This document shows positions 339 to 16,050 of a stretch of DNA of 64,000 nt, one piece after another. A program made the translations under genes and the position numbers. Under the pieces are notes generated by a model, which saw nothing but the letters and a program-made list of their open reading frames with translations, made no database searches and was not told the DNA's origin. Position 1 is the stretch's first letter; each line of letters begins with the position of its first letter. Source of the stretch: a virus; IMG/VR virus record IMGVR_UViG_3300042945_002173, one strand, 5' to 3'.

Positions 339-497
339 ATGGTCACCGACACCGCACAGGATGCCCAGATCCGCCGTTCTATCATTAAATCGGTGAGCGG
401 CATGGATCTTCGCCTTCTGCAACGAATTGCCTATGAGGTTCGTTGTGAAGAACTGGGCATTCGCCCTGATGGTTGGAAACTCTACCCTGAGAACTGA
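339..497 (+). CDS. Hypothetical protein, 52 aa (MVTDTAQDAQ...)
   Basis: Read manually; follows a promoter/leader and abuts the next ORF. Confidence 0.7.
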   Translation: MVTDTAQDAQIRRSIIKSVSGMDLRLLQRIAYEVRCEELGIRPDGWKLYPEN

Positions 498-500
498 TTC

Positions 501-704
501 ATGAAACTTTCTACTACTTCTGTCACCAAGATTGCTGATGCTCTCAAACCAGCAGTCATTGATTACATTTATGAAGATGAAGGATTTGTTGAATATATGC
601 AAACTGCCGTGGTAGAGGGTATTCGCAATGCGATGGGAGATATGGATGAGGATTTACTTTTTGAACTGGGTATGTTAATCTTTGATCGGATCGAACTGAA
701 ATGA
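501..704 (+). CDS. Hypothetical protein
   Basis: ORF track; tightly packed operon. Confidence 0.7.
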   Translation: MKLSTTSVTKIADALKPAVIDYIYEDEGFVEYMQTAVVEGIRNAMGDMDEDLLFELGMLIFDRIELK

Positions 705-931
705 TGAACGAGCAACGAAACAAAGTAATTCAATATGCCGTTGTTGTGAGCACTATTCTCAACTTAGGAATGTGCCTGAATTTGTATCTTCAACTTGGTA
801 GAATGCAATATCAAGTAGCACAAATAGACAGTGATATTTCAAGTGCTGTTGAAGCATTGAGTCGTTATATTTGGGAAATCAAAAACAATGAAGTAAGTAA
901 TTCTGAAACTTATCCAGGAGGACTTCAATGA
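701..931 (+). CDS. Hypothetical membrane-anchored protein
   Basis: N-terminal hydrophobic helix; ATGA overlaps on both sides. Confidence 0.65.
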   Translation: MMNEQRNKVIQYAVVVSTILNLGMCLNLYLQLGRMQYQVAQIDSDISSAVEALSRYIWEIKNNEVSNSETYPGGLQ

Positions 932-1239
932 TTGGATTGATCGCTGGTTTGACGTGTGGAATCGCTACATACTACGGTGTTGGTGATGGTTTCCATGGAC
1001 AAACAACCGCTAATGGTGAACGGTTTGATGCTTATCGTTGGACTGCAGCTCATCCTTATCTTCCTATGGGTACGAGGATTCGGGTAACCAATCAGGATAA
1101 TCTCAAACAAGTGATTGTGAGAGTGAATGATCGTGGTCCATATTCTCATGCAGATCTAGATCTATCCTATGCTGCATTTGCACATATTCAATCTCCCCGC
1201 AAGGGTAACGCCACTATTTGTTATCGTGTAATCGGATGA
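928..1239 (+). CDS. RlpA-like double-psi beta-barrel lytic transglycosylase
   Basis: ATYYG..FHGQTTANGERFD, TAAHPYLPMGT, VRVNDRGP, DLS motifs. Confidence 0.85.
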   Translation: MIGLIAGLTCGIATYYGVGDGFHGQTTANGERFDAYRWTAAHPYLPMGTRIRVTNQDNLKQVIVRVNDRGPYSHADLDLSYAAFAHIQSPRKGNATICYRVIG

Positions 1240-1610
1240 AAAAACTTCTTTTTGCTGCTGCGATTCTGTTCTCTGCACCAGTTTATGCACAACAGTCACC
1301 AACGAATTATCAACCATTTCGTTATGAAACATCTTGTGCTCTGATGTATGAGGGTGAACCAATGACGGATCTGTGTGTGGTGATTGAAACCCGTGAAAAA
1401 GGTGGAGCACTTCGCACTCGTAATATCTTTTCAAATCGATTCAGTCTGACGATCAAAGGAAGATTTGATAAGCAGAAAGGTTATATGACCTGGGATTCTC
1501 ATAATAAGTATGAATATAAATGGGACTATAAGATCGGTCAGGTTGGAGAACTTGGTGTCTGGTCTGAGGTTATGCCTAGTTTTTATTTGCAAAACGTAAG
1601 TTGGGATTGA
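1236..1610 (+). CDS. Hypothetical exported protein
   Basis: MKKLLFAAAILFSAPVYA signal peptide; start at the ATGA overlap. Confidence 0.7.
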   Translation: MKKLLFAAAILFSAPVYAQQSPTNYQPFRYETSCALMYEGEPMTDLCVVIETREKGGALRTRNIFSNRFSLTIKGRFDKQKGYMTWDSHNKYEYKWDYKIGQVGELGVWSEVMPSFYLQNVSWD

Positions 1611-1613
1611 ATA

Positions 1614-1823
1614 ATGAAAATTACAGAAGCAACAGTTAATTTAAATGTACATGAGATGGGTGTGATTCTTTCTGCACTGCAAAATCTTGAAAATGCAGAT
1701 GAACATCGTATTGCCAGAGAATATGGCAGTGTGCCAGCACTTTATGATAAACTCTATTCCTACTGGGAGCAGATGGACAGATCGCAAACTGGACTACGGT
1801 ACGATGTGGTGCCCTCCTTCTGA
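1614..1823 (+). CDS. Hypothetical protein
   Basis: ORF track, operon packing. Confidence 0.7.
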   Translation: MKITEATVNLNVHEMGVILSALQNLENADEHRIAREYGSVPALYDKLYSYWEQMDRSQTGLRYDVVPSF

Positions 1824-1856
1824 GGTTATAATACAAAGGTAATCGGGACACACCCA

Positions 1857-2117
1857 ATGCAAACGCCTCAACTGACCAGCAAGGACGGCAATATGGTGGT
1901 TGACTTCTATCCCGTCAAGACTCCTTATGGTGATATTTCTGAAACTTGGGTACTTCGTACAGTCACCTTTGCTCCTCACGGTCAAGTGTCAAAGAAGTTT
2001 CTCAACAAAGTAGAAATGCTGTTGGACATCCGTGAGCGTGTGGCATACGGTTACAATCAAACGGGTGATAACTCCAATCTTCCCCAACTTGGAAATCCGA
2101 TGGCAGGTGCCTGCTGA
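1857..2117 (+). CDS. Hypothetical protein
   Basis: Preceded by degenerate dyad (1773-1796) and TATAAT (1827). Confidence 0.7.
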   Translation: MQTPQLTSKDGNMVVDFYPVKTPYGDISETWVLRTVTFAPHGQVSKKFLNKVEMLLDIRERVAYGYNQTGDNSNLPQLGNPMAGAC

Positions 2118-2263
2118 TGAAAACTTCTTATTGGTTTCTTGGTATCATTGCCATTCTCATGTGGAACGGAATGATCATCAAACGTGATCAAGAACTGTTC
2201 AAGGCATATGATAAGGTCTGTGCCGAACTTCCCTCTCATCCTCATTGCCATCTTTCCAAATGA
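2117..2263 (+). CDS. Small membrane protein (MKTSYWFLGIIAILMW...)
   Basis: Read manually; overlaps both neighbours; TM helix plus two Cys. Confidence 0.6.
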   Translation: MKTSYWFLGIIAILMWNGMIIKRDQELFKAYDKVCAELPSHPHCHLSK

Positions 2264-2442
2264 ACGACGAAGACATTCAACAATTTATGAATGCATTTGA
2301 TGATTTTATGAAGCATTCTGAGGTTGAGCAATTTAATCATGATGCCTGGTTGATTGCTAAACAATACACTGATCATTTTTATGAGCAGAAAGCAGCAGAA
2401 CTGGAAGTGACTGTTGATTATTACATTCAGGAGTTTGTATGA
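2260..2442 (+). CDS. Hypothetical acidic protein
   Basis: ORF; ATG at 2260 overlaps the upstream stop. Confidence 0.65.
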   Translation: MNDEDIQQFMNAFDDFMKHSEVEQFNHDAWLIAKQYTDHFYEQKAAELEVTVDYYIQEFV

Positions 2443-2609
2443 ACGATCAAACCAAATTCATTTTTGCACTTATGCAGATTGAGAACATTTCAAATCTCAT
2501 CACAGGAAATGAATATGAAAGGTTCTTTGCTTCACATCTCATTCCAATCAAAGTTGAACTGGAAAGGCAATTGACAAATCTCACTCATTCCTCTAAAATT
2601 AAGGAGTAA
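2439..2609 (+). CDS. Hypothetical protein (MNDQTKFIFALMQ...)
   Basis: Read manually; ATGA overlap. Confidence 0.6.
   Translation: MNDQTKFIFALMQIENISNLITGNEYERFFASHLIPIKVELERQLTNLTHSSKIKE
2571..2599 (+). promoter_or_regulatory. Sigma70-type promoter
   Basis: TTGACA-N17-TAAAAT upstream of ORF 2623. Confidence 0.7.
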
Positions 2610-2622
2610 TTTAGAAATACTA

Positions 2623-2853
2623 ATGAAATCACTTTACATTGTTGACTACTGGGTTCCGTTTCCTTCTTCTGAATATGGTGGTGTTGTATCACTAATCGCT
2701 GAGAATGATACGGAAGCATTCCAACTCCTTGCCGATGAAGATGGTTTTGATGACAGTTATCAGAATCTAATCATGCCCAATGTCGTCAAGGCACAGAAGT
2801 TCAAACTTGTGGATGATTATGAATCTGGTATTATTGATGCATTTACCACCTGA
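2623..2853 (+). CDS. Hypothetical protein
   Basis: ORF with AGGAG upstream. Confidence 0.7.
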   Translation: MKSLYIVDYWVPFPSSEYGGVVSLIAENDTEAFQLLADEDGFDDSYQNLIMPNVVKAQKFKLVDDYESGIIDAFTT

Positions 2854-2858
2854 TAATT

Positions 2859-3029
2859 ATGGAAGAAAGACTCTATCGCATTGAAGAACTTTGTACAACT
2901 GGTTGGGAACTGGTTGAAGAAAAGTATGTTAATATGACAAAAGAACGCACTCAGGAAGTTTTAAATCAACTGATTGCCGATGGTTATAATCCTAATACAT
3001 TACGTGCCGTACCCAATCCACAAAAATGA
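2859..3029 (+). CDS. Hypothetical protein (MEERLYRIEEL...)
   Basis: Read manually; fills the gap and overlaps the next start. Confidence 0.65.
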   Translation: MEERLYRIEELCTTGWELVEEKYVNMTKERTQEVLNQLIADGYNPNTLRAVPNPQK

Positions 3030-3304
3030 TTGAGTTTCCTCATAAACCACCAGCAGGTTATTCTTATGAACAAGTTCCATTTAAACGTAATGTTATTGCA
3101 ATCTGGATTCATAATCATTACAGGTTTGTTTACAATGGCGGTGGGATTACTCGTAGCATCTGGGGATTCTACAATCTCAAAACCAAGTGCTTCCACTCTC
3201 CTATCAACGCCAAAACAGTCGGTGATCAAGTAAACATTGAACAAACAACTCCATACTCTGCTATGATACCTAAACTCTCACCTCTCGAACTTGCTTATGT
3301 CTAA
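3026..3304 (+). CDS. Hypothetical protein
   Basis: ORF track, operon packing. Confidence 0.7.
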   Translation: MIEFPHKPPAGYSYEQVPFKRNVIAIWIHNHYRFVYNGGGITRSIWGFYNLKTKCFHSPINAKTVGDQVNIEQTTPYSAMIPKLSPLELAYV

Positions 3305-3545
3305 GTATAGTCCACGCCTGAATGATTATGTTCAATGGAAGAAAGGTGTCGAAGGATGGGTGTATTTTGTTGATAAAGAATATATCACCATCGAAACCAA
3401 CGTCCGCCCAAAAGATCAATTCAATGTCCAGGCGTGTTCTATTCATAAGAATGAAAGGTTATTGGTACTTTGTTACAAGGAACAGTGGAATGAATTAACT
3501 TATGTCGGACATCGTGTTGATCAGTATTCAACTACAATCATATGA
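3297..3545 (+). CDS. Hypothetical protein
   Basis: ORF track; ATG at 3297. Confidence 0.65.
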   Translation: MSKYSPRLNDYVQWKKGVEGWVYFVDKEYITIETNVRPKDQFNVQACSIHKNERLLVLCYKEQWNELTYVGHRVDQYSTTII

Positions 3546-3787
3546 AACAGAAGAGAACAGTATGGAGATGGTGGGCAAAAGCATTAGGAGAGAAGGCAAG
3601 TAAATGTGACAAAGAATCAGACCACATTGCTATTATACGTACTGTTATATTCAGTACTTATCTCATTACTAATCTATTCATTATTGCAGGCGTAATTCGA
3701 CATTGGAACAAAAATGAAATACCAGGTTGTATACTACAAATTGAAGAAGGACCAGAAGAAAGCGAAACAAGAAGCAATCTTTTATAA
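3542..3787 (+). CDS. Hypothetical membrane protein
   Basis: WRWWAKALGEK followed by a TM segment. Confidence 0.65.
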   Translation: MKQKRTVWRWWAKALGEKASKCDKESDHIAIIRTVIFSTYLITNLFIIAGVIRHWNKNEIPGCILQIEEGPEESETRSNLL

Positions 3788-3866
3788 TATTGAAGATGCC
3801 TCACTCTGGGAGCAACATATTAAGGAACAAGGTTATGTAAATTCTGAGATTGTACCAATCTTCTAA
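3714..3866 (+). CDS. Hypothetical protein (MKYQVVYYK...)
   Basis: Read manually; overlaps the 3' end of the previous ORF. Confidence 0.5.
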   Translation: MKYQVVYYKLKKDQKKAKQEAIFYNIEDASLWEQHIKEQGYVNSEIVPIF

Positions 3867-3891
3867 ATACAAAAAAGATTTCCAAGAAACA

Positions 3892-4095
3892 ATGAAGACG
3901 TTTGCACAATTAATGGAACAGATTCATGGTCCAGTAAATCGAACGGAAGTTGCGCTCGCAAAGACCAGAGCAAACATTGCCTCAGAGCGTCTTCGCAGAA
4001 GGCGTCAGTATCAACAAGGTCTTCATACGACGATGCACTTAAATCAGACCGCAGAAAAGGAAGACAGAAAAAAAGCAGAAGTTTATAATACCTGA
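3892..4095 (+). CDS. Small basic protein with capsid-targeting-like N-terminus
   Basis: MKTFAQLMEQ start; CTAAATA late-like promoter about 25 nt upstream. Confidence 0.55.
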   Translation: MKTFAQLMEQIHGPVNRTEVALAKTRANIASERLRRRRQYQQGLHTTMHLNQTAEKEDRKKAEVYNT

Positions 4096-4137: not shown

Positions 4138-4947
4138 TCATTTGTTATAAAACCAGTAATATCCTTTCCAACTATAATGCCCAGGATTGCGTAAACTTTT
4201 AATCAATCCGGTACCTTTACCAGAGCCACCTAATACTCTCACAGCATCTGCAATAGATTCATAACGGGCACTTATTTCACCTGTTTTTTTATTTACAGCA
4301 AATACCGATTTCTTTTTAGATTTGTCTTCTAAGATCTGCCACTTGTGTCCATAGGCAGTACCATCTTTTCTGGCAGCAAGTAGAATATTACTATTTTTAT
4401 TCGGATCACCAGTAAGAGATAATGCTGCCATACGAGCATTCTCATAGTCAGTACAGATTCCAGTTTCTAAATTCTTTCCACGTATTGGAAGACCACAATG
4501 TTTTCCATTACCTCTGTTCTCTTCTGTAAGAGCACCCCAAGGTTCTATCTTTGCTTTTGTAGTTAATGCAATAGATATGTTTTCAATATGTTCTGATGTA
4601 AGTATCTTTTGCTTTGCTTTTTCTGTTATTTTTTGTTTTGTTTCTTCACTGAATATTGGACGTTCACCACCACTTGTAGCATTATATCCTTCTTTAAATG
4701 TATTATGTTGTTTGATCCAATATTCTTCTCTTTCATTTAATAAACTCTCATCACATTCATCTATTTCTTTAATCATGAAGTTGTGATTGCCATATTTACG
4801 CATGGCACGATGTAGGGGTTTATCACTCATTCTTATTGCTTCTTGTATGTGTTGTTGCCACCTTTTATTCATTCCTTGGGTGGTCTGACCAACATACTTG
4901 TGCCCGTTTTGCTTGTTGATAATTAGGTAGATGATTCCCTGTGCCAT
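4138..4947 (-). mobile_element. Free-standing GIY-YIG homing endonuclease with NUMOD-type C-terminal DNA-binding repeats
   Basis: GIIYLI...YVGQT, RW..H, LNEREEYWI, GYN..SGG; opposite strand to neighbours. Confidence 0.85.
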
Positions 4948-6296: not shown

Positions 6297-6770
6297 ATGC
6301 TGACTGGCAACGCACTGCTGATCAAGGTTAACGAAATGCAGGCACAAAACCCGCCTGCTAAGATGTCTGAAATCGTTCGTGCCTGTGGGTATGAACTGGA
6401 AGGCAAACTGAAGTATACTCAATTCTACACTGAGTTGCTGACTGTCAAAGGTATCCTGAACAATGATACTTTGGAGAATGAAATCTCTGAGGAGAATCAG
6501 GATCTGTATGCCGAACTGTGTAACCGTTATGGTTCGGATGCAATCGATGCATTCCTGGAACTCTATGATGAAAATGATCTGGGTAATTTTGAAGATGCCT
6601 ATCAGGGTCGTTATGATTCTGAGGCAGCATTTGCAGAGGAAATCACCACTGATTGTTATGGTTTGAACGTTCCTTCGTTCGTGATCATTGACTGGCAAGC
6701 AACTTGGGATCAGGGTCTCTATTATGACTATGATTTCGTGGATGGTTTCGTGTTCAGCAAGAATTGGTAA
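6297..6770 (+). CDS. Picocyanobacterial AbrB-like N-terminal domain fused to an ArdA-like antirestriction domain
   Basis: MLTG..LL.KV..SEIVRACGY..FYTELL..KG followed by acidic FEDAYQGRYDSE.AFAEE...IDWQATW...YDY..VDGFVF. Confidence 0.6.
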   Translation: MLTGNALLIKVNEMQAQNPPAKMSEIVRACGYELEGKLKYTQFYTELLTVKGILNNDTLENEISEENQDLYAELCNRYGSDAIDAFLELYDENDLGNFEDAYQGRYDSEAAFAEEITTDCYGLNVPSFVIIDWQATWDQGLYYDYDFVDGFVFSKNW

Positions 6771-8243: not shown

Positions 8244-9143
8244 ATGCAAAACAAGCACCAAGAGCACCCCGAAGACACCATCCTCACGGGCGACCTTTCC
8301 GTTCTGGATTGGTTCACTGCTGCTGGCGCTCTGAGCGTTAAGATCGACGGTGCCCCTGCAATCGTGTGGGGCACTGATCCTGCAACGGGTACGTTCTTCG
8401 TGGGCACTAAGGCAGTATTCAACAAAAAGAAGATTCGTATTGCTCACTCTCACGATGAGATTGACCAGCATTATGAAGGCAATGTAGCAGACATTCTTCA
8501 TTCGTGCTTTGATTATCTGCCACGCACCGAGTCTATCATTCAGGGTGACTTTATCGGGTTTGGTGGTGAAACTGAATACACTCCGAACGTGATCACCTAT
8601 AAGTTCGGTGATGTAGTTTCGCAACGTATTATCATCGCACCTCACACCTATTATGAAGCAAACGATGACCTTCGTGATAGTTGGGCATTGCCCCTGATGG
8701 TGAATCTGCAAAGCGATGATGACGTTCTGTTCGTGAAACCTGATGCCTACATTGTACACAATCAGACCTCATTCGCTGATGTAAAAGAGGTTTGTGATTT
8801 CGCTCGCCAGATGTCAACTGCGTGTGAGTTCGTTTCTAACAAAGAAGCAGCAGAGATCAAAAAGCAAATTAACGCCTGCATTCGTGCGGGTGAAGAGATC
8901 AATCCTGAGGACTTCGATTGTGACACTAACCTGATGCGTTTGTGGGCATTGGTGAAGTCAATCAAAGATGACTGTTTGTTCCTCTGCCGTAACAATGGTC
9001 CTGCTGCTTATCTCTACGGCAACAGAATCGACGCTGAGGGTTATGTGATGACCAATGAGTTTGGTATGTTCAAACTGGTCAATCGTGAGGTCTTTTCTAA
9101 CGCTAACTTCAACCACGGACGCTTTCAGTGTGCCAATCGTTGA
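8244..9143 (+). CDS. DUF6267-like protein with RNA-ligase/nucleotidyltransferase-like motifs
   Basis: HxEHPED, SVKIDGAPA (KxDG), IIQGD, EGYV, FKLV. Confidence 0.55.
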   Translation: MQNKHQEHPEDTILTGDLSVLDWFTAAGALSVKIDGAPAIVWGTDPATGTFFVGTKAVFNKKKIRIAHSHDEIDQHYEGNVADILHSCFDYLPRTESIIQGDFIGFGGETEYTPNVITYKFGDVVSQRIIIAPHTYYEANDDLRDSWALPLMVNLQSDDDVLFVKPDAYIVHNQTSFADVKEVCDFARQMSTACEFVSNKEAAEIKKQINACIRAGEEINPEDFDCDTNLMRLWALVKSIKDDCLFLCRNNGPAAYLYGNRIDAEGYVMTNEFGMFKLVNREVFSNANFNHGRFQCANR

Positions 9144-9209
9144 AGTGGCACAAGGGGGATTGACTCCCCCCTTCTCACCCTTTATAGTAACTTCAGTTCA
9201 ATCAAACCA

Positions 9210-9776
9210 ATGGAAACCTTCCTCGAGACTTCCTTCCAGAATGTACGTTCTTCAAAGCGTACAGATGAGTTCCACAAGGTGCTTTTAGATGAGGTTCTGA
9301 ATGCAAACCCTCAGTGGGCAGAGTATGACTGGCAGTATGAATACCAACTGCCCGTAGACGGTTTCGGAGGCACCTTTGACATTGACATTGCTGGGTTTGT
9401 TGATAGTCAACTTAAAGTTGCAATTCTTGGCAAAGCACTCAACAGCAACATCAACAAAAACATCAAAAATTATGCTAACACCAGTGTAGGCGAAGCGGCA
9501 CGTTTGATGTACGCTCCTGACATCATCCTGGAAAAAGTGCTGTTCGTGAGTGTTCTTCCCCGTGTGGCACCTCGCTTCAACAAAGCAGGCGAAGTTCAGG
9601 GATTCGATGACGTTGTGGGTGCCAAAGAGCGCACTAAGATTAACACCGTTTTGCAGTTCCAATACGGTGGCAAAGTAGAGGCAATCGACCTGTTCTTTGA
9701 CATTGACAATGTTAAAGTTCTGACTGAGTTCAACACCGTTAGCATCAGCAACCTGGATCCGCTGGTGCTGGTGTGA
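9210..9776 (+). CDS. Putative PD-(D/E)xK restriction-endonuclease-like protein
   Basis: EY.LP...FDIDIA...VAILGK..NSNINKNIKNYAN...GE; promoter TTGACT...TATAGT. Confidence 0.4.
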   Translation: METFLETSFQNVRSSKRTDEFHKVLLDEVLNANPQWAEYDWQYEYQLPVDGFGGTFDIDIAGFVDSQLKVAILGKALNSNINKNIKNYANTSVGEAARLMYAPDIILEKVLFVSVLPRVAPRFNKAGEVQGFDDVVGAKERTKINTVLQFQYGGKVEAIDLFFDIDNVKVLTEFNTVSISNLDPLVLV

Positions 9777-9854
9777 CGGTTCAGGGGGTGGCACACGCTG
9801 CCCCCATCCTGCTCCGCTGTGCCTTTATACTGATCTCAGTTCAGACAAAGACCG

Positions 9855-10028
9855 ATGACCCGCTACGACGTGATCTGCCCTTCCGCTCCCTGGGAGAACA
9901 CTACCACTGATGAGGATCGTGCCTACGACCTCTGCTATTCTCTGAGCGAGGACTACGGTTACGCTGAGATTCGCCAGAACGGAATGGTCATCGCAGACTA
10001 TGGCAACCCTGCCACCTTCCTTGGTTGA
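9855..10028 (+). CDS. Cassette protein, 57 aa (MTRYDVICPSAPWEN...)
   Basis: Read manually; ATG after the leader. Confidence 0.75.
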   Translation: MTRYDVICPSAPWENTTTDEDRAYDLCYSLSEDYGYAEIRQNGMVIADYGNPATFLG

Positions 10029-10034
10029 CACTAA

Positions 10035-10060
10035 GGGGAGCAAATACGCTCCCTTTTTTT
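10035..10060 (+). terminator. Intrinsic terminator
   Basis: GGGAGC-AAATAC-GCTCCC followed by a T run. Confidence 0.8.
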
Positions 10061-10080
10061 ATACTTTTCTTTTTTTTATT

Positions 10081-10143
10081 TTATGGCAGGGGGCGTGGCG
10101 ACCGTTTTCGTCATCAGGGCTACCCCGCCCCTTCTTCGCTTGT
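10081..10143. ncRNA. Candidate structured small RNA, three-way junction (copy 2)
   Basis: Homologue of 5825-5886; minus-strand promoter TTGCTG-N16-TATACT at 10177-10150. Confidence 0.5.
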
Positions 10144-10263
10144 GACCTCAGTATAGGGCCGCGGCAATCCCCAGCAACCACTGCTGTGCCAGTTCCCGAA
10201 CCGTCCACCAAACCGCCCACTGCCCCCCTGATGCCCTATACTGATCTCATGAAACAAACCAAG

Positions 10264-10413
10264 ATGACTCACGACGAACTGATCGCTAGCGTGATGGCAG
10301 AGTACACCGCCAAGGTCAACCGTGAGGAAGCATACCGCCAAGCGGTGCGCCGTGGTGAGATCGCTCCCCCTCAGGTCCAATCCACCAACTGGAACATCAG
10401 CGACCGCCATTGA
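10264..10413 (+). CDS. Cassette protein (MTHDELIASV...WNISDRH)
   Basis: ATG after the leader; alternative start at 10249. Confidence 0.7.
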   Translation: MTHDELIASVMAEYTAKVNREEAYRQAVRRGEIAPPQVQSTNWNISDRH

Positions 10414-10454
10414 GCGGCGCTGCCCTTAGAATGACCTCAGATCAAACGAACCCC

Positions 10455-10595
10455 ATGATCCGCTACGAAGTCCGCTACCAGGTGCCCTACAACCAGTGTG
10501 AGTGGCGCTCTCAGTTCTTCCGCACCTATGATGAGGCGATGCGGATGGTAGAGTTCTACCGCTCCTGTGGATCCCCTGCTCACCTGGCACCATGA
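10455..10595 (+). CDS. Cassette protein (MIRYEVRYQVPYN...)
   Basis: ATG after the leader. Confidence 0.7.
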   Translation: MIRYEVRYQVPYNQCEWRSQFFRTYDEAMRMVEFYRSCGSPAHLAP

Positions 10596-10759
10596 TCAAA
10601 GCACTGACCCGCTCCCGTTCCCCTGAGTTTCACCGCGCCACCATGCTGCGCCTCCTGATCACCGCTCTGCTGCTCTGGGGATTCTGGGAACCGCTGCGCC
10701 CCATCCGCAATGTGACAGCTCAGGCACTGGACACCGCTGCCGACCTGATCGCCCGCTGA
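10592..10759 (+). CDS. Small membrane protein (MIKALTRSRS...)
   Basis: Read manually; ATGA overlap; TM segment. Confidence 0.65.
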   Translation: MIKALTRSRSPEFHRATMLRLLITALLLWGFWEPLRPIRNVTAQALDTAADLIAR

Positions 10760-10792
10760 CCCTTTATACTGATCTCAGTTCAGACGACACCG

Positions 10793-10963
10793 ATGATCGA
10801 CCTCCTAAACCGCGTGGGGATCGTTGCCCTTGCTCTGCTCTTCATTGTGGGCGGCGCCCATCTGGCGGCTCAGGGCAATGCCCACCGCAACGCTGAATGT
10901 CGTGCTAACGGTGGCAAGGTGGTTGTCTTTCAGAATCGGCCGCCAGGGTGTGTCCTGCCCTGA
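10793..10963 (+). CDS. TM-anchored two-Cys cassette protein, paralog of 13485
   Basis: Read manually: TM plus GNA....C...GG.V.......C. Confidence 0.7.
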   Translation: MIDLLNRVGIVALALLFIVGGAHLAAQGNAHRNAECRANGGKVVVFQNRPPGCVLP

Positions 10964-11054
10964 ACCCAGTGCCGCCGGCGGCACTGGCACACTGAACCAC
11001 ATGGACCCCCTCCCTGACCCCCTATACTGATCTCAGTTCACAAGCGAACCCACC

Positions 11055-11306
11055 ATGAAAGTTCAGCAAGTCGGTAGCAACCAAACCGAAGTGACCCTGG
11101 CAGACGGGACCTGCATCCTGTTCTCCTACGATCAACCCGTCGCCGCCATCGTGCCTGGCAAAGGGTGGATTCGCACCGCTCAGCAGTGGAGCGCCACCAC
11201 CACCAAGCATGTCAACGCCTGGATTCGCAAGCATCGCGGCAACTACGTCATCGGTGAGGTTGCCAGTGTGCCACAATGGGATCTGGACCAACTGGTGGCG
11301 TTCTGA
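11055..11306 (+). CDS. Cassette protein, 83 aa
   Basis: ORF after the leader; LFSY..PVAA...WS.TT.KH.N.W. Confidence 0.75.
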   Translation: MKVQQVGSNQTEVTLADGTCILFSYDQPVAAIVPGKGWIRTAQQWSATTTKHVNAWIRKHRGNYVIGEVASVPQWDLDQLVAF

Positions 11307-11353
11307 GGGGCGCCACCCCCTACAATACTCTCAGATCAGAGGAACCCCCCCCG

Positions 11354-11551
11354 ATGAAACTCTCCAAAAAGCAAAGGATTGTCGCCGTTCCTATTATCAT
11401 TGTTCTGGCAATTCCTGCTATTCTCCTAAAAGTTGCGACGGAGATTTTCTACATCCTCTCCAACATTTTTGGGGCATCTGCTGATAAATTGGAGAAACTA
11501 AATCTTGCTTGGGGTGAACAGTTTCAAACCTTCATCAAGACTGTCTTGTGA
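11354..11551 (+). CDS. Cassette membrane protein, AT-rich relative to neighbours
   Basis: ATG after the leader; TM segment. Confidence 0.65.
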   Translation: MKLSKKQRIVAVPIIIVLAIPAILLKVATEIFYILSNIFGASADKLEKLNLAWGEQFQTFIKTVL

Positions 11552-11630
11552 CAGTCCAGCAAGTGGCACAAAGCACCGCCGCCTGACCCCCTGACCCCTT
11601 ACAATACTTTCAGTTCACAAGCAACCGACC

Positions 11631-11807
11631 ATGACCTACGCTCAGATCACCGCTTCCAACCTCAGCGCCTCCGCTGCCCGCTCCGCGATCTGTGATCTGG
11701 CAGATCAGTTCTCCTGGGAGACCGTCGCCCGTGAGATGCTCTCCCGCATGTCAGGTGATGAGGCACGGGAGTTTGTGGAAGACTTCCAGCGCCTCTATGC
11801 CGACTGA
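11631..11807 (+). CDS. Cassette protein (MTYAQITASNL...)
   Basis: Read manually. Confidence 0.75.
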   Translation: MTYAQITASNLSASAARSAICDLADQFSWETVAREMLSRMSGDEAREFVEDFQRLYAD

Positions 11808-11881
11808 GGCACTGGCACACGGGGGGCACCAACCCCCCACCCCCGACCTGCTATACTGATCTCAGTTCAAACGACCCGACC

Positions 11882-12067
11882 ATGAAAGTTTACGCCGTTA
11901 TCGCTGGTGAGGATTATGCGGGGCAGGACTTCGATTCCCTGCGCCTGTTCGATTGCCTCTCCGCTGCCCAAGCATACGAAAAAGAACTGCAGCAGCAGTT
12001 CGGCGTAGACTATACCCTGCTGGAGGTGCGGGAGGTTTGCATGGAATCCGCTCTCTGTGCCGCCTGA
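11882..12067 (+). CDS. Cassette protein
   Basis: ORF after the leader. Confidence 0.75.
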   Translation: MKVYAVIAGEDYAGQDFDSLRLFDCLSAAQAYEKELQQQFGVDYTLLEVREVCMESALCAA

Positions 12068-12142
12068 GGCACTGGCACAAGGGTCCTGAGCACCGACCCT
12101 AAACTGCTCTACAATTCTCTCAGTTCACAACCCGAACCGATC

Positions 12143-12349
12143 ATGCGCTACAATCCCGCCACCGATCGCGCCCTGAGCATTGATGAGATCGCCGCGCAGT
12201 GTAAGGCAGCGATCATGAAGGCATCCGCTCCCGCTCCTGCTCCCTGCTCCTGGGAGGATGTTGCTGCCCTGGAGGATGATGACTTCTACGCTGAGAACCC
12301 TGTTCTCTGGGGATTCGCCTGGGAGAATGATCTGATGATCGCCGCCTGA
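12143..12349 (+). CDS. Cassette protein
   Basis: ORF after the leader. Confidence 0.75.
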   Translation: MRYNPATDRALSIDEIAAQCKAAIMKASAPAPAPCSWEDVAALEDDDFYAENPVLWGFAWENDLMIAA

Positions 12350-12355
12350 TACAAT

Positions 12356-12412
12356 GGGAGCGGGAGCGCCTACGGCGGAACGCCTACGGCGTTAACGCCC
12401 TTAAAGACTCCC
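12356..12412 (+). other. Structured leader with twin CGCC-TAC-GGCG hairpins inside a GGGAG/CTCCC stem
   Basis: Direct reading. Confidence 0.5.
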
Positions 12413-12445
12413 ACACCAAACCACAACCCACAATCCTAGCACACC

Positions 12446-12577
12446 ATGTCCCGCGAACTTGCCCTCTCCCTGCTCCGCTCTGGCAACGACGGCGCTGAGA
12501 TCCTGCAGATTCTGGAAACGATCGCCGCCGATGATGGCAGCGACGCAGAACCCACCCTAGAAGAAATCCAATTCTGA
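12446..12577 (+). CDS. Acidic cassette protein (MSRELALSLL...)
   Basis: Read manually. Confidence 0.7.
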   Translation: MSRELALSLLRSGNDGAEILQILETIAADDGSDAEPTLEEIQF

Positions 12578-12647
12578 TAGTGGCACAACGGAGGGGGACA
12601 CCCCTTCCCTTTTGCCTCTATACTGATCTCAGTTCAGACAAAGACCG

Positions 12648-12794
12648 ATGACCGACTTCTTCGCTTCCTACCTCTCTGACCTCTCCGCTCTGTCGGGTGC
12701 TGACCTCTCCTGCCTGCTGTGCGACGCCGTCGACTTCGATGACGATGCTGCCTTTCAGGTGATCATCGCTGAGATGCAGGCACGGGGCATCTGA
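12648..12794 (+). CDS. Cassette protein (MTDFFASYL...)
   Basis: Read manually. Confidence 0.7.
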   Translation: MTDFFASYLSDLSALSGADLSCLLCDAVDFDDDAAFQVIIAEMQARGI

Positions 12795-12828
12795 TCTGCT
12801 ACAATACTCTCAACAGCAACGGACCCCG

Positions 12829-12990
12829 ATGCCTTCCTTCCGCGTTGTTACCACCGATGAGATGCCAGAGGTCCTGGGAGAGTTTCCCAACCTGGCATAT
12901 GCCGATATGTTTGCTGAGGCACTGATGCACCAGAGATGCCAACGCTCAACCGTCGAGCATTGGGATGGCAGGGAATGGGTTTCCCTCTGA
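12829..12990 (+). CDS. Cassette protein (MPSFRVVTT...)
   Basis: Read manually. Confidence 0.7.
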   Translation: MPSFRVVTTDEMPEVLGEFPNLAYADMFAEALMHQRCQRSTVEHWDGREWVSL

Positions 12991-13029
12991 CCCGCGACCT
13001 GCTACAATACTCTCAGTTCAGACAACCCC

Positions 13030-13218
13030 ATGCACTGCACCACCTTCCCCGCCATCGTTTGGAACTGCGCCGATGAGAACGGGTGCATCCGCTGGTCCGC
13101 CGCCTGCCAGGCAGCAAAGGATCATGGTCTGTGGGATGACTTCCGCACCGACTATGGCACCACCGCCCGCTTCGGTCCCGTGGATGCGGGTGAGTTCCTT
13201 TCGTGGTTGGGGTATTGA
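13030..13218 (+). CDS. Cassette protein, DAGExLxWLGY family, copy 1
   Basis: Paralog of 14965 and 15226. Confidence 0.8.
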   Translation: MHCTTFPAIVWNCADENGCIRWSAACQAAKDHGLWDDFRTDYGTTARFGPVDAGEFLSWLGY

Positions 13219-13267
13219 CCCCTGCCCCCTTCGTGCTCTACAATTCTCTCAGTTCAGACAAAGACCG

Positions 13268-13450
13268 ATGACCCGCACCCTGACCGACGACCTCCTGGAC
13301 CTGGCAACTGCCATCGCTGCTGAGATGTATGGTTGCGATCTGGATCGCCTGGACCCTGAGGACCTGGCATGGTATGCTGACCGCACCGACGCAGACAACC
13401 TGGAGGAGATGGCAAACGACCTTGCTGCTGCCGCCTGGGAATCCTACTGA
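13268..13450 (+). CDS. Acidic cassette protein (MTRTLTDDLL...)
   Basis: ATG after the leader. Confidence 0.75.
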   Translation: MTRTLTDDLLDLATAIAAEMYGCDLDRLDPEDLAWYADRTDADNLEEMANDLAAAAWESY

Positions 13451-13484
13451 TCTGCTACAATACTCTCAACAGCAACGGACCCCG

Positions 13485-13661
13485 ATGCAAACTCTCAAAG
13501 CAACCGCCATCGCCCTCCTGGTCATCACGCTGGCGACCGCTGGATACGCTGCCCTGCTCCACAATGGCAACGCCCGCATCGAAGCCAAGTGCGCCGCTCA
13601 GGGTGGGCAGGTCATCACCGCCCCTGGTGAGATCAGCCGCTGCCTCCGCCCTGCCCGCTGA
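13485..13661 (+). CDS. TM-anchored two-Cys cassette protein, paralog of 10793
   Basis: ATG after the leader. Confidence 0.75.
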   Translation: MQTLKATAIALLVITLATAGYAALLHNGNARIEAKCAAQGGQVITAPGEISRCLRPAR

Positions 13662-13698
13662 TCTGCTACAATACTCTCAACCGACACCTCCCCCACCG

Positions 13699-13866
13699 AT
13701 GACCAACCACACCTGGGCCGACAACGCGATGCGCTGCGCCGCTGCCCGCGCTGCCGCCCTGCGTCCCTTTGAGCACGAGTCCTGGGCACACTACCGTCAG
13801 CAGCGGGAGCGGGAGACTCTGACCGCCCTGTGGCATCTCTACTGGGATCATGAGGTCGCCTTTTGA
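13699..13866 (+). CDS. Cassette protein (MTNHTWADN...)
   Basis: ATG after the leader. Confidence 0.7.
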   Translation: MTNHTWADNAMRCAAARAAALRPFEHESWAHYRQQRERETLTALWHLYWDHEVAF

Positions 13867-13898
13867 CCTGCTATAATTCTCTCAACCGCAACGGACCC

Positions 13899-14111
13899 AT
13901 GACCCTCACCCTCCAGGACCTGACCTTTGAAGAACTGGAATCGCTCTGGGATGACTGCCAGCGCAACGGCGACTATGACTTTCAGGATCGCCTGCTGCGG
14001 GAGATGCTCACCCGTGAGGATGCCTGCCCCGAATCCTATGACCTGCTCTGGGAGATGCAGGATGCAGGATGGAACGGTGGGGTCACTCAGGAGGACAGGG
14101 ACGCTCGCTGA
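13899..14111 (+). CDS. Acidic cassette protein (MTLTLQDLTFEE...)
   Basis: ATG after the leader. Confidence 0.75.
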   Translation: MTLTLQDLTFEELESLWDDCQRNGDYDFQDRLLREMLTREDACPESYDLLWEMQDAGWNGGVTQEDRDAR

Positions 14112-14180
14112 ACCGTCCACCTAGGGGCATCCTGCCCCCCTGCCGACCTGCTACAATTCTCTCAGTTCAGACAAAGACCG

Positions 14181-14384
14181 ATGACCAAAGCACAAGCGAT
14201 CGAAACCCTCTCCGCTCAGTTCAACGCTCCCTACGGCGGGACCTTCATCTCCGCTCTGAGCGGTGACCTGATTCAGGACATCATGATGGAGGGTGACATG
14301 GGCAAGACCTTCCACCGCTTTGGTAAGACCATTGTGGAAGACTCGAGTCTGATCGGTCTGGCACGCTACTACCAGACCCACTGA
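14181..14384 (+). CDS. Cassette protein
   Basis: ORF after the leader. Confidence 0.75.
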   Translation: MTKAQAIETLSAQFNAPYGGTFISALSGDLIQDIMMEGDMGKTFHRFGKTIVEDSSLIGLARYYQTH

Positions 14385-14391
14385 ACCCTAC

Positions 14392-14427
14392 GGGGCAGGT
14401 TGACCCCTGCCCCCGACCTGCTATACT
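14392..14427 (+). promoter_or_regulatory. Stem-loop promoter with -35 TTGACC as the loop of GGGGCAGG/CCTGCCCC
   Basis: Identical units also at 14903, 15164, 15426; TG-extended -10 TATACT. Confidence 0.8.
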
Positions 14428-14450
14428 GAACACGTTCACACCTGAACCCG

Positions 14451-14633
14451 ATGACCACCACCACCATCGACGGCATTCAATTCAAGGTCACCCGCCTGCC
14501 CGTTGCCCATGGCGCTAGCGCCAACCGTTGGGCATCCCGAATCAAAGGCGGTTCCTCCCGTGTTCGCACTGGTGCTGGTTCCCGATCGGTTCACCAGAGC
14601 ACCAAGGCAACCGCTCTGCAGGACGTTCGCTGA
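14451..14633 (+). CDS. Basic cassette protein
   Basis: ORF after the leader. Confidence 0.7.
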   Translation: MTTTTIDGIQFKVTRLPVAHGASANRWASRIKGGSSRVRTGAGSRSVHQSTKATALQDVR

Positions 14634-14671
14634 CCTGCTATACTGATCTCAGTTCACAACCCGAACCGACC

Positions 14672-14896
14672 ATGACCGATCCCACCCCCCTGCAGACGAT
14701 CCTTTCCCCCATCCGCTACCCGTTCGCGGTGGCGTTCGTGAAGGGCGATAAGATCGCCCGCACCCTTGCCTACGCCAGCACCCTGGAGGACTGCTACTTC
14801 CAGGTCCAGGGATGGCGCAGCGCCTATGGCAGCGCCGACTACATCATGGCAGAGCAGCAGGAGCGCAGCGGCAAGTCTTACTGGGTTGCCGTTTGA
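14672..14896 (+). CDS. Cassette protein (MTDPTPLQTIL...)
   Basis: ATG after the leader. Confidence 0.7.
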   Translation: MTDPTPLQTILSPIRYPFAVAFVKGDKIARTLAYASTLEDCYFQVQGWRSAYGSADYIMAEQQERSGKSYWVAV

Positions 14897-14964
14897 CCCT
14901 ACGGGGCAGGTTGACCCCTGCCCCCGACCTGCTATACTGATCTCAGTTCACAAGCAACCGACCG

Positions 14965-15156
14965 ATGCCTGAGACCTTCTCCGATCAACTGTTGACCATT
15001 GCCGATGACAACGGATGCGTCACCTATGACGACGCCCTGTATGCTGCCGACCTTCACGGCAGCATGAATGAGTTCCTGCAGGAGTACGGCACCGCTGACC
15101 ACTGGGGAATCTATGGGATCGACGCGGGCGAACTGTTGACCTGGTTGGGATACTGA
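14965..15156 (+). CDS. Cassette protein, DAGExLxWLGY family, copy 2
   Basis: Paralogy visible in the translations. Confidence 0.8.
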   Translation: MPETFSDQLLTIADDNGCVTYDDALYAADLHGSMNEFLQEYGTADHWGIYGIDAGELLTWLGY

Positions 15157-15225
15157 CCCCTATGGGGCAGGTTGACCCCTGCCCCCGACCTGCTATACTG
15201 ATTCCAGTTCACAAGCAACCGACCG

Positions 15226-15417
15226 ATGACCTGCTCCACCTTCCCCGCTCAGATCGCTGAAATCACCAACCCTGAGAACGGGACCATCTTCTGGATCGAA
15301 GCGGCATACGCTGCCAAACAGCACGGTCTGTGGGATGACTTCCGCACCGACTACGGCACGACCTCTGACTTTGGTGGGGTCGACGCTGGCGAATTTCTGG
15401 TGTGGTTGGGGTACTGA
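15226..15417 (+). CDS. Cassette protein, DAGExLxWLGY family, copy 3
   Basis: Paralogy visible in the translations. Confidence 0.8.
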   Translation: MTCSTFPAQIAEITNPENGTIFWIEAAYAAKQHGLWDDFRTDYGTTSDFGGVDAGEFLVWLGY

Positions 15418-15487
15418 TTCCCTATGGGGCAGGTTGACCCCTGCCCCCGACCTGCTATACTGATCTCAGTTCACACCCGAACCGACC

Positions 15488-15682
15488 ATGACCCGCTTCC
15501 CTCTCTCTCAGGCAACCCGCATCGCTGACCGCCAGACCGTGTGGATCTCTGCTGCTGATAATGCTAAGAATGCTGACGGTCGCCCCTCTCAGTACGTTCA
15601 CTGGGGTGTGCCTACTGCCATCATTGCTGGACAGTATTCTGAGTCTTGTGCTCACACCGTCAAAGCACCGTGCTTTGACTGA
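15488..15682 (+). CDS. Cassette protein
   Basis: ORF after the leader. Confidence 0.75.
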   Translation: MTRFPLSQATRIADRQTVWISAADNAKNADGRPSQYVHWGVPTAIIAGQYSESCAHTVKAPCFD

Positions 15683-15754
15683 TCTGTTCGTGGGGGTGGG
15701 GTGCCACCCTGCCCCCGACCTGCTATACTGATTCCAGTTCACAAGCAACCGACC

Positions 15755-15925
15755 ATGACCATGACCCTCGAAACCGCCAACCGTATTTGGGAAGACTGCT
15801 ATCAGAGCACCGACCTCACCCTTTGGGGTAAGTACACTCTGACTCAGCGGATGCAGGCAATCGAAACCCGCGATGCCCACGCTAACGGCGGATGGGGTCG
15901 GTGGAACATCAGCGACCGCGACTGA
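15755..15925 (+). CDS. Last cassette protein (…WNISDRD)
   Basis: ATG after the leader. Confidence 0.75.
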   Translation: MTMTLETANRIWEDCYQSTDLTLWGKYTLTQRMQAIETRDAHANGGWGRWNISDRD

Positions 15926-16050
15926 CCCCTGCGGGGCGCCGCGCCCTTATGGGTGCGTTCGTGCAGACGCAGGTCCCCCGCCGGGTGCGGGGGGTCGGGC
16001 GCGGCGCGTGATGGGGTATAAGGGGGGGTTGTTATAAAACCCATAACTAC
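15926..16050. other. GC-rich multibranch hairpin at the array end and composition boundary
   Basis: GCGCCGCGCCC (15936-46) pairs with GGGCGCGGCGC (15997-16007) and encloses two hairpins. Confidence 0.6.

Follow-up and report, generated by a model that had tools for sequence, protein, structure and literature searches.

A probable recombining array of promoter-like linkers and mini-genes in a T4-like cyanophage

The locus

Virus record IMGVR_UViG_3300042945_002173 of IMG/VR, a stretch of 64,000 nucleotides (nt) that was analysed whole and is called the window here, carries an array of very small genes, almost every one of them behind a near-copy of the same intergenic element, the linker. The core array, at 9826-15925 on the plus strand, consists of 24 promoter-like linkers and 25 open reading frames (ORFs) that begin with ATG, encode 43-83 amino acids (aa) and range in GC content from 0.40 to 0.66. 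A preliminary description, made from the letters of the sequence, had proposed an array of mini-genes delimited by repeats. The count of 24 repeats and 25 ORFs bears this out, as does the motif TAYAMTNNTYYCAGTTCA, which with at most one mismatch occurs 16 times, always on the plus strand and always within 9826-15741, against 0.05 copies expected from shuffled sequence. From one -10 box to the next, the 24 repeats (9826-15724) lie 181-411 bp apart. A linker precedes 24 of the 25 array ORFs, the exception being ORF 10592, which overlaps the stop codon before it; the unit at 12350 has an atypical leader of 90 nt.

The window represents a T4-like cyanomyovirus. Downstream of the array are baseplate genes of the gp25, gp6 and gp7 types, gp8, a neck protein, gp15, terminase, tail sheath, the gp20 portal and the gp23 major capsid protein. 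These T4-like core structural genes, and cyanomyoviruses as nearest relatives, place the window with the Kyanoviridae, or T4-like cyanomyoviruses; the nearest isolates, P-SSM2, P-SSM5 and S-SRM01, show only 74-79% nucleotide identity to it, in conserved (baseplate) genes. The source is best explained as an uncultured, Kyanoviridae-like T4-like cyanomyovirus of fresh water, and the array as a hyperplastic accessory-gene region upstream of its baseplate module.

Linker anatomy

From upstream to downstream a linker comprises the stop codon of the preceding gene, an optional dyad or GC hairpin, the box (TGn)TAYAMT, NNTCTCAGTTCA, a C/A-rich leader and ATG, for a total of 40-70 nt. In the most compact units the upstream TGA lies inside the linker, and stop, promoter-like box, leader and start fit within about 35-40 nt. 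We aligned 342 distinct copies from the window and its relatives, which gave a core from about -12 to +27, counted from the first base of the -10 box, with the consensus cCtgAcCtgC-TAYAMT-nnTCTCA-GTTCA-aAcgacccCc; ATG follows 27-33 nt past the start of the box. As a control for circularity the copies were re-anchored on CAGTTCA alone. The hexamer 11 nt upstream was then TAnnnT in 276 of 332 copies, with positions 1, 2, 4 and 6 near-fixed and positions 3 and 5 free, and TGn, as in an extended -10, stood ahead of the hexamer in about one-third of them. This kind of variation is the pattern of a sigma-70 -10 element. A transcription start some 7 nt past the -10 would leave a 5′ untranslated region of 15-20 nt.

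The leaders are 42% C, 33% A, 17% G and 8% T. Matches to a Shine-Dalgarno (SD) sequence (GGAG, GAGG or AGGA) precede only 1 of the 25 array ORFs, compared with 9 of 21 backbone ORFs; the earlier statement that the array lacks SD sequences therefore stands for 24 ORFs and fails for the one at 11354-11551, which has an SD-like GAGGA. Perfect hairpins of at least 6 bp were detected upstream of the -10 in 141 of 327 units (30 in shuffled sequence), most of them beginning about 30 nt before the box, with the consensus ggggg...ccccc.

Three linker classes can be told apart, all on the plus strand. Class A, at 9772-12079, has the dyad TGTGNCA-N10-TGNCACA beginning 53-56 nt before the -10 (at 9772, 10711, 10968, 11267, 11547, 11796 and 12056), and the stop codon of the upstream ORF is often in or beside it. 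The dyad pattern occurs 12 times in the window against 3.3 expected (256, 5755, 5929, 6213, 7377, 9129, 9772, 10968, 11267, 11547, 11796 and 12056), and five times in the marine phage Syn9 (NC_008296; 7098, 13055, 48558, 52996 and 127492) against none in the reversed control. Since it is common to Syn9 and the window, it is probably a clade-wide operator of T4-like cyanophages, and it probably serves as a binding site for a host or phage regulator.

Class B, at 12791-14184, is compact: an upstream TGA, YCTGC, TACAAT or TATAAT as an extended -10 (TGn), NNTCTCA followed by GTTCA or ACNGCA, leader and ATG, in an intergenic space of about 35-40 nt with no hairpin. Class C, at 14386-15760, comprises five units of 71 nt that are 75-100% alike; in each, an 8-bp hairpin (GGGGCAGG/CCTGCCCC) holds the -35-like TTGACC in its loop, and after a spacer of 16 nt come TGC-TATACT and the leader. 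The long identical blocks quoted in the preliminary description are all present: the class B copies at 12791 and 13447 agree at 42 of 42 nt, CTCAGTTCAGACAAAGACCG stands ahead of the four ORFs 9855, 12648, 13268 and 14181, and the 38-nt GGGGCAGGTTGACCCCTGCCCCCGACCTGCTATACTGA has four copies at 14393-15463.

Relatives and distribution

The exact 22-nt linker pattern CTGCTAYAMTNNTCTCAGTTCA was found in 75 IMG/VR contigs, where fewer than one would be expected by chance according to our own estimate from the degeneracy of the pattern and an assumed collection size. In most of these contigs there are 3-13 copies, arrayed in a single orientation, and in the five long contigs of relatives (26-91 kb) all copies belong to one array with one orientation. 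Among 185,579 prokaryote genomes the pattern occurred once, in a 2572-bp contig (JBIKNV010000533.1; locus L077) binned to a Pirellulales metagenome-assembled genome (MAG) from a lake time series, most likely phage DNA that was mis-binned. Near-absence from cellular genomes argues for a phage element and not a host promoter; mimicry of a host promoter was rejected on the same count, this one 2.5-kb lake-MAG contig being the only occurrence. Searches of the array by megablast and blastn against 50,697 phage records gave no match beyond one cassette homolog each in S-CREM1 and S-WAM2, and in S-CREM1 the homolog sits inside a tightly packed operon, with neither linkers nor a GC island.

Between 59 and 98% of the sequence words of the stretch are present in at least 20 metagenome runs from lake water, dated 2020 and 2024. 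In contigs assembled independently, many junctions between cassettes and the two edges of the array recur with zero differences, one contig (X8, 15725-16685 of the window) crossing the right edge and another (9050-9855) the left.

The window and the 75 loci yielded 428 cassettes, whose products were clustered. The caller required TA(T/C)A(A/C)T and ATG within 60 nt and misses some units, so that some of the successors given here skip a cassette; all comparative data come from short-read metagenome contigs. The cassettes fell into 76 families, 25 of them singletons. About 50 families are shared, and they appear in differing combinations and orders across 47 non-redundant arrays. Every common family is followed by many different neighbours on its right, family 2 for instance by 15 in 22 arrays; some adjacencies recur (families 9-10, 15-2, 7-12 and 1-4-8). 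As read from these sequences, indels and replacements are frequent and transposition is occasional, over an order that is loosely conserved. The loci L033 and L046 provide an example: they are collinear through families 5 and 6, after which L033 has one extra cassette (family 45) and the alignment blocks overlap by a 36-nt linker in L046, and families 13 and 1 stand in opposite order in the two.

Single cassettes can be nearly identical between genomes that are otherwise well diverged. The cassette at 13654-13884 (plus strand), with its 55-aa ORF at 13699-13866, is 98-100% identical to copies in L004, L030 and L047, and the backbones are 76-79% identical. Compared with L030, identity runs base for base from the cassette's own GATCTGC-TACAAT to the CTGCTA of the next linker; outside these limits the sequences are unalignable and the neighbours on both sides differ. 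Other single cassettes reach 92-96.5% identity to further loci, and the best backbone matches are 85-91%.

Breakpoints were surveyed by taking cassette pairs at least 95% identical across loci and walking outward until identity collapsed. Of 52 non-redundant breakpoints, 47 fell at -31 to +34 of the start of the -10 box, a span of 66 nt that makes up about one-quarter of a unit of ~250 bp, and they took many positions within it. This dispersal across the linker points to homologous crossover and not to a cut at a fixed, site-specific position. The ends of high-scoring segment pairs between the window and all loci were likewise concentrated at linkers.

The closest relative (G001, identical with L072 and L080), with a backbone 90-91% identical, has in common with the window cassettes homologous to those at 14451, 14965, 15488 and 15755. 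Two different cassettes take the place of 14672 and two unrelated ones the place of 15226. All six of its class C linkers have a variant of their own, with loop TTGACGCC and hexamer TACACT, where the window copies have TTGACCCC and TATACT. A private linker variant in each genome indicates homogenisation, or concerted evolution, which is the signature of repeated recombination or conversion among linkers. Contigs from the lake runs also include alternative joints at linkers, such as 11599 to 11852 (-10 to -10), 13015 to 13875 and 13901 to 14149; their flanks are short (20-37 nt) and perhaps from related strains, so that they may be other orders in the population, from which circles are indistinguishable.

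Base composition

The preliminary description overlooked a sharp split in GC content and codon usage. The array has 57-60% GC and the T4-like structural backbone 30-37%, with a drop of 25 points within about 50 bp near 16030. GC at third codon positions (GC3) is 0.54-0.85 in the mini-ORFs, mostly 0.6-0.8, with one outlier at 0.45, compared with 0.13-0.24 in backbone genes. In the predicted frame of almost all mini-ORFs GC is highest at third and lowest at second positions (GC3 > GC1 > GC2). There is no GC gradient along the array, GC3 staying at about 0.65-0.8 throughout. The relatives are alike in this respect: their 407 cassette ORFs have a median GC of 0.60 and a median GC3 of 0.74, and their right flanks a median GC of 0.35.

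The outlier is the ORF at 11354-11551 (plus strand) that was mentioned above for its SD-like sequence, the only one in the array. It encodes a 65-aa predicted membrane protein, has a GC of 0.40 and a GC3 of 0.45 and forms a singleton family; low GC together with an SD suggests that ORFs of other origin can enter the framework. The notion that all small genes of the early region are GC-rich was rejected, operon-like small ORFs at 339-4095 having 38-42% GC.

The S-CREM1 ortholog of family 2 is a closely similar protein with a GC3 of 0.39, against 0.67 in the window. This, the restriction of family 1 to viruses and the near-confinement of the linker to phage argue that the high GC arose inside phage lineages and was not imported from hosts. 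Family 1 was also found behind a diverged linker in a related phage of 45-55% GC. The split may be due to selection for host-like codons in genes whose translation precedes the supply of phage tRNAs, to GC-biased conversion at a hot spot of recombination, or to a cassette pool that resides for much of the time in higher-GC phages. More broadly, and with considerable doubt, the array might be a compositional and evolutionary compartment of a "two-speed" genome, drawing on a pool of promoter-equipped mini-genes that circulates among co-infecting cyanophages with differing backbones, in which a local force (GC-biased conversion or codon selection) raises GC3 to about 0.74 while it stays at 0.13-0.24 in the backbone 50 bp away.

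Cargo

For the 18 families that provided enough pairs, the ratio of nonsynonymous to synonymous substitution rates (dN/dS) lies at 0.09-0.36 throughout, which indicates purifying selection and, together with the in-frame order of GC3, GC1 and GC2, marks the mini-ORFs as genes. Pfam has no family for any of the 25 cargo ORFs. Seventeen of them are without a PHROG match, and the matches that exist are all to groups of unknown function and are confined to the class A half, whose cargo mostly has PHROG relatives in cultured cyanophages. Among the homologs in cultured phages are those of family 2 in S-CREM1 and of the ORFs at 10249 and 11882 in S-RIM44, Syn1, S-PM2 and ACG-2014; the family of the 83-aa product is found in very diverse phages. 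No relatives among cultured phages were found for the class B and C half, and class B cargo matched neither PHROG nor Pfam.

As the preliminary description had noted, the cargo includes paralog families: one, called WLGY, has three members in the window and two others have two each. The WLGY copies, all on the plus strand, are at 13030-13218 (62 aa; 94.8% identical to L024 and L037, and about 72% to the third copy), 14965-15156 (63 aa; 94% identical to its counterpart in L072/G001) and 15226-15417 (63 aa; best match L040, at 89%). With 89-95% identity to copies elsewhere against about 72% among themselves, they appear to have been acquired separately and not duplicated in place. WLGY is the most frequent family and has 47 metagenomic homologs, labelled viral; a host origin of family 1 is unsupported, all 47 homologs being metagenomic or viral.

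The structure model of WLGY is a four-helix fold, with a predicted local distance difference test score (pLDDT) of 79. Foldseek comparison of the model with PDB gave nothing at E <= 0.001, only weak look-alikes among EF-hand pairs (E 0.2-2, template modelling score 0.4-0.6). Two loop-helix segments of the protein (D-x-N-G-x-I and V-D-x-G-E-F-L-x-W-L) resemble EF-hand loops, and the likeness, as modelled, is offered as a lead only. Another cassette, in the relative G001 (~643-900 of its reverse complement, L080), encodes a 76-aa protein made of EIRDEI/NIHDEIRDEI peptide repeats. That cargo proteins act as early effectors, in host takeover or anti-defence, is conjecture, the sole hint being a sub-threshold ArdA-like match in a neighbouring gene.

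Known systems

The preliminary description named the PeSL (early promoter stem-loop) cassettes of T4-like phages as the closest precedent, and we agree on the strength of the shared location, ORFan cargo, -10 box and recombination signature. PeSLs are repeats of a sigma-70-like early promoter with an adjacent terminating stem-loop of a G-run and a C-run, and they precede ORFans in hyperplastic parts of the genome (Arbiol et al., 2010, PMC2839356; Comeau et al., 2014, PMC4122927). They have been described from RB49/phi1, T4/PST and KVP40/nt-1, where their recombination leads to indels, replacements and the release of mini-circles (PMC2839356; PMC4122927). The array likewise consists of repeated intergenic promoter-like elements, some of them with a GGGG...CCCC stem-loop, each ahead of one small ORFan in a hyperplastic part of a T4-like genome. 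In both systems relatives differ by the insertion, deletion, replacement and displacement of units, the crossovers lying inside the element, and the mechanism proposed is homologous recombination on short homology.

The two differ in detail. The array elements have no SD (1 of 25) and no AT-rich UP region, and the start codon is within the unit. Their -35 is absent or lies in a hairpin loop, and many have an extended -10 or an upstream dyad instead. Their stem-loop is optional, being found in fewer than half of the units, and has no T run after it; the linker also holds the upstream stop codon and the conserved initial transcribed box CAGTTCA. The array is denser, with 24 units in 6 kb, and it stands out as a GC-rich compartment (GC3 ~0.7) of an otherwise AT-rich phage. 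For RB49 the activity of promoter and terminator and the formation of mini-circles were demonstrated, whereas the array is known here from its sequence.

A milder form of the architecture exists in a cultured phage. In S-RIM44 (KX349295.1; locus L081) small genes stand singly upstream of gp25, at 61.6-63.6 kb, and each is preceded by a hairpin or dyad, a -10-like box (TAGACT, TATTGT or TACAAT) and a C/A-rich leader without SD; some of these genes have a GC3 of 0.53-0.72, against ~0.3-0.36 in backbone genes nearby. The place is the same, just upstream of the baseplate wedge genes, and homologs of the families of 10249 and 11882 are included. The S-RIM44 linkers differ from those of the array in being far more diverged from one another, and the GC contrast is milder. 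To our knowledge these units have not been described as recombining cassettes. For S-PM2, an "ORFanage" has been reported, without the high PeSL density of other T4-like phages (Puxty et al., 2015, PMC4503421). The novelty claimed in the preliminary description has to be reduced by the S-RIM44 case at the same locus. A search of the literature brought up no account of GC-rich promoter-cassette arrays in cyanophages.

Interpretation

We conclude that the array is probably the cyanophage version of the PeSL recombining promoter cassettes: autonomous units of linker and mini-ORF that are shuffled by homologous recombination. The linkers being alike and co-oriented, the phage homologous-recombination machinery could cross over anywhere within them, in one genome or between co-infecting phages. 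Such crossovers would delete, insert, replace or reorder cassettes, and every gene would keep its stop, promoter and start. Each linker would contribute a stop codon, in some cases a dyad operator or a GC hairpin, a -10 of the sigma-70 type that is often extended, the initial transcribed CAGTTCA, an SD-less C/A leader and a start codon. To judge from these motifs, the linkers would fire as promoters for host RNA polymerase; the cassettes may be expressed early, and exchange might proceed through mini-circles or co-infection. That recombination between repeats makes the array a shuffling platform had been suggested from the window itself, and the relatives agree with it in both respects, cassette order and content differing among the 47 arrays and breakpoints falling in the repeats (47/52).

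Several points weigh against this reading. A -35-like TTGACY at 16-18 nt from the -10 occurs in only 6 of the 25 window units. The GC stem-loop that belongs to the definition of a PeSL was seen, as a perfect hairpin of 6 bp or more, in no more than 141 of 327 units and is absent from class B, and as no linker stem-loop is followed by a T run, a terminator function is doubtful. Host-like promoters reportedly drive middle, not early, genes in T4-like cyanophages, and the early genes are said to be headed by a separate, clade-wide upstream element, possibly the class A dyad; class B and C linkers have no dyad. The label "early" is therefore uncertain for classes B and C, and dyad-bearing cassettes may differ in temporal class from those with a bare extended -10. 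Contigs from a metatranscriptome run (X21) cover a few cassettes and indicate presence at best, not starts or strand, with DNA carry-over possible; nor do cassettes left uncovered by RNA have to be silent. Breakpoints inside repeats are in part forced, alignments continuing through any shared linker. Repeats of 38-71 nt may also yield chimeric joins between co-occurring strains, so that some order differences could be assembly errors; identical orders in independent samples (L021/L022/L046, L004/L030/L047 and L005/L032/L064), and the divergence between homologous cassettes, argue that most of them are real.

The shared sequence could instead act in RNA. On this account the array would be read as one long transcript, the boxes and C/A leaders would be sites of SD-independent ribosome loading or of processing, and recombination would be a by-product. 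The 24 of 25 ORFs without SD, the G-poor and unstructured leaders, the reach of the conserved block well past the -10 into the transcribed part, the near-lack of terminators in the array and the translation of ORF 10592 without a linker of its own would all suit it. We nevertheless consider it unlikely, because the hexamer varies as a -10 does (TAnnnT kept, positions 3 and 5 free) and often comes with TGn or with TTGACC at 16-18 nt, which would be unexpected of an RNA element. Selection by itself could keep the copies of a strong promoter alike, with cassette differences due to illegitimate recombination or vertical loss and no special role for the linkers. Promoters of one class are indeed alike in any phage, and the units of cultured S-RIM44 are similar, if more diverged. 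Such an account is highly improbable, given that identity over 40-71 nt covers positions with no known promoter role, that private linker variants are common to six neighbouring units in a genome, that 90% of breakpoints are in the quarter or so of the sequence that is linker, and that single cassettes are 98-100% identical where backbones are 78%.

The preliminary description also saw an integron-like logic. In a system of that kind some recombinase would cut a fixed core of the linker (e.g., CTGCTA or the hairpin) and move cassettes as circles. Unidirectional single-gene cassettes from a shared pool and a fixed distal end are common to integrons and the array, some linkers have hairpins, and the back-joints in contigs would fit circles, though they may equally be other strains' orders. 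This part of the description needs correction, and we regard such a mechanism as very improbable indeed: breakpoints are scattered over about 65 nt (-31 to +34) and not at one position, which points to homologous and not site-specific exchange; many linkers have no hairpin and do not fold, and they are not imperfect palindromes of the attC kind; each cassette has its own promoter-like element in place of a single Pc promoter; and T4-type phages recombine efficiently on less than 50 bp of homology (PMC2839356). In line with the description, no integrase, whether of the IntI type or otherwise, and no recombinase domain was found among the window ORFs scanned. Hardly credible, finally, is an assembly artefact joining a GC-rich fragment of another organism to a low-GC phage contig. 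The jump of 25 GC points in about 50 bp at 16030 would invite such a suspicion, but the independent contigs that cross the two edges, and the recurrence of the same junctions and flanking genes in many IMG/VR contigs from different samples, led us to reject a chimeric island; the linker motif moreover heads the lower-GC gene at 9210 as well.

If the array is indeed a set of recombining promoter cassettes, PeSL-type shuffling, which previously rested on three pairs of enterobacterial and vibrio phages, would extend to a lineage of cyanophages that is abundant in fresh water and whose arrays occur in dozens of natural variants. With cassettes 98-100% identical across 78% backbones, and the stretch present in at least 20 lake runs, the gain, loss and spread of cassettes could be followed in natural populations and related to the turnover of hosts or defences. 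Screens for host takeover or anti-defence would have a defined set of candidates in the roughly 50 conserved families of mini-proteins, and the SD-less linkers of stop, promoter, leader and start may serve as compact cyanobacterial expression parts. So extreme a GC3 difference inside a single phage genome is also relevant to the ways in which codon usage, the timing of expression and recombination shape such genomes.

Array edges and neighbouring features

A 25th copy, the left-most linker of the family, is at 9129-9209 on the plus strand, with its repeat at 9183. It has the dyad TGTGCCA-N10-TGGCACA, a GGGGG/CCCCC hairpin with TTGACT in the loop, TATAGT and the leader AACTTCAGTTCA, and it heads a 188-aa gene (9210-9776; phrog_21547). 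The DUF6267/phrog_455 gene (8244-9143) and the phrog_21547 gene each have a dyad-plus-promoter linker of their own. In L021, L022 and L046 the phrog_21547 gene is on the other side of the DUF6267 gene, that is, in reversed order relative to the window, which suggests that larger genes act as cassettes too and that the cassette region reaches to the left of its reported start.

The right boundary (15926-16040, plus strand) is a GC-rich multi-hairpin region (-68 kcal/mol, z -2.4), after which GC goes down to the mid-30s; backbone homology to relatives begins at 15943-15954. This multibranch structure at the edge between array and backbone may be a terminator or insulator before the next module.

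Within the array, 10029-10236 is a lower-GC "cassette" without an ORF. It has a plus-strand intrinsic terminator (10033-10056) and its T run, and near 10143-10159 it has a linker-like CCCTATACTGAGGTCAC (TATACT) on the minus strand, facing left into a GC-rich structured stretch. The element is 72-93% conserved in more than 20 related loci, at varying places in their arrays, and is a candidate antisense or small-RNA cassette. Its terminator is the one that the preliminary description had singled out as the only clear one, near the start of the array; the other intrinsic terminator that we found there, at 12590-12608, is weaker. A scan with Rfam gave no match at gathering scores, only a chance-level snoRNA match (E 0.41), and no tRNAs were found in the window.

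Two ORFs to the left of the array may be mentioned. That at 6297-6770 (plus strand; 157 aa) matches the ArdA antirestriction family, though below threshold (E 1.1e-4; 23.3 bits, cut-off 27). That at 4138-4947 (minus strand; 268 aa) has a GIY-YIG domain (Pfam E 1.9e-12) and is homing-endonuclease-like; the small genes surrounding it are on the opposite strand.

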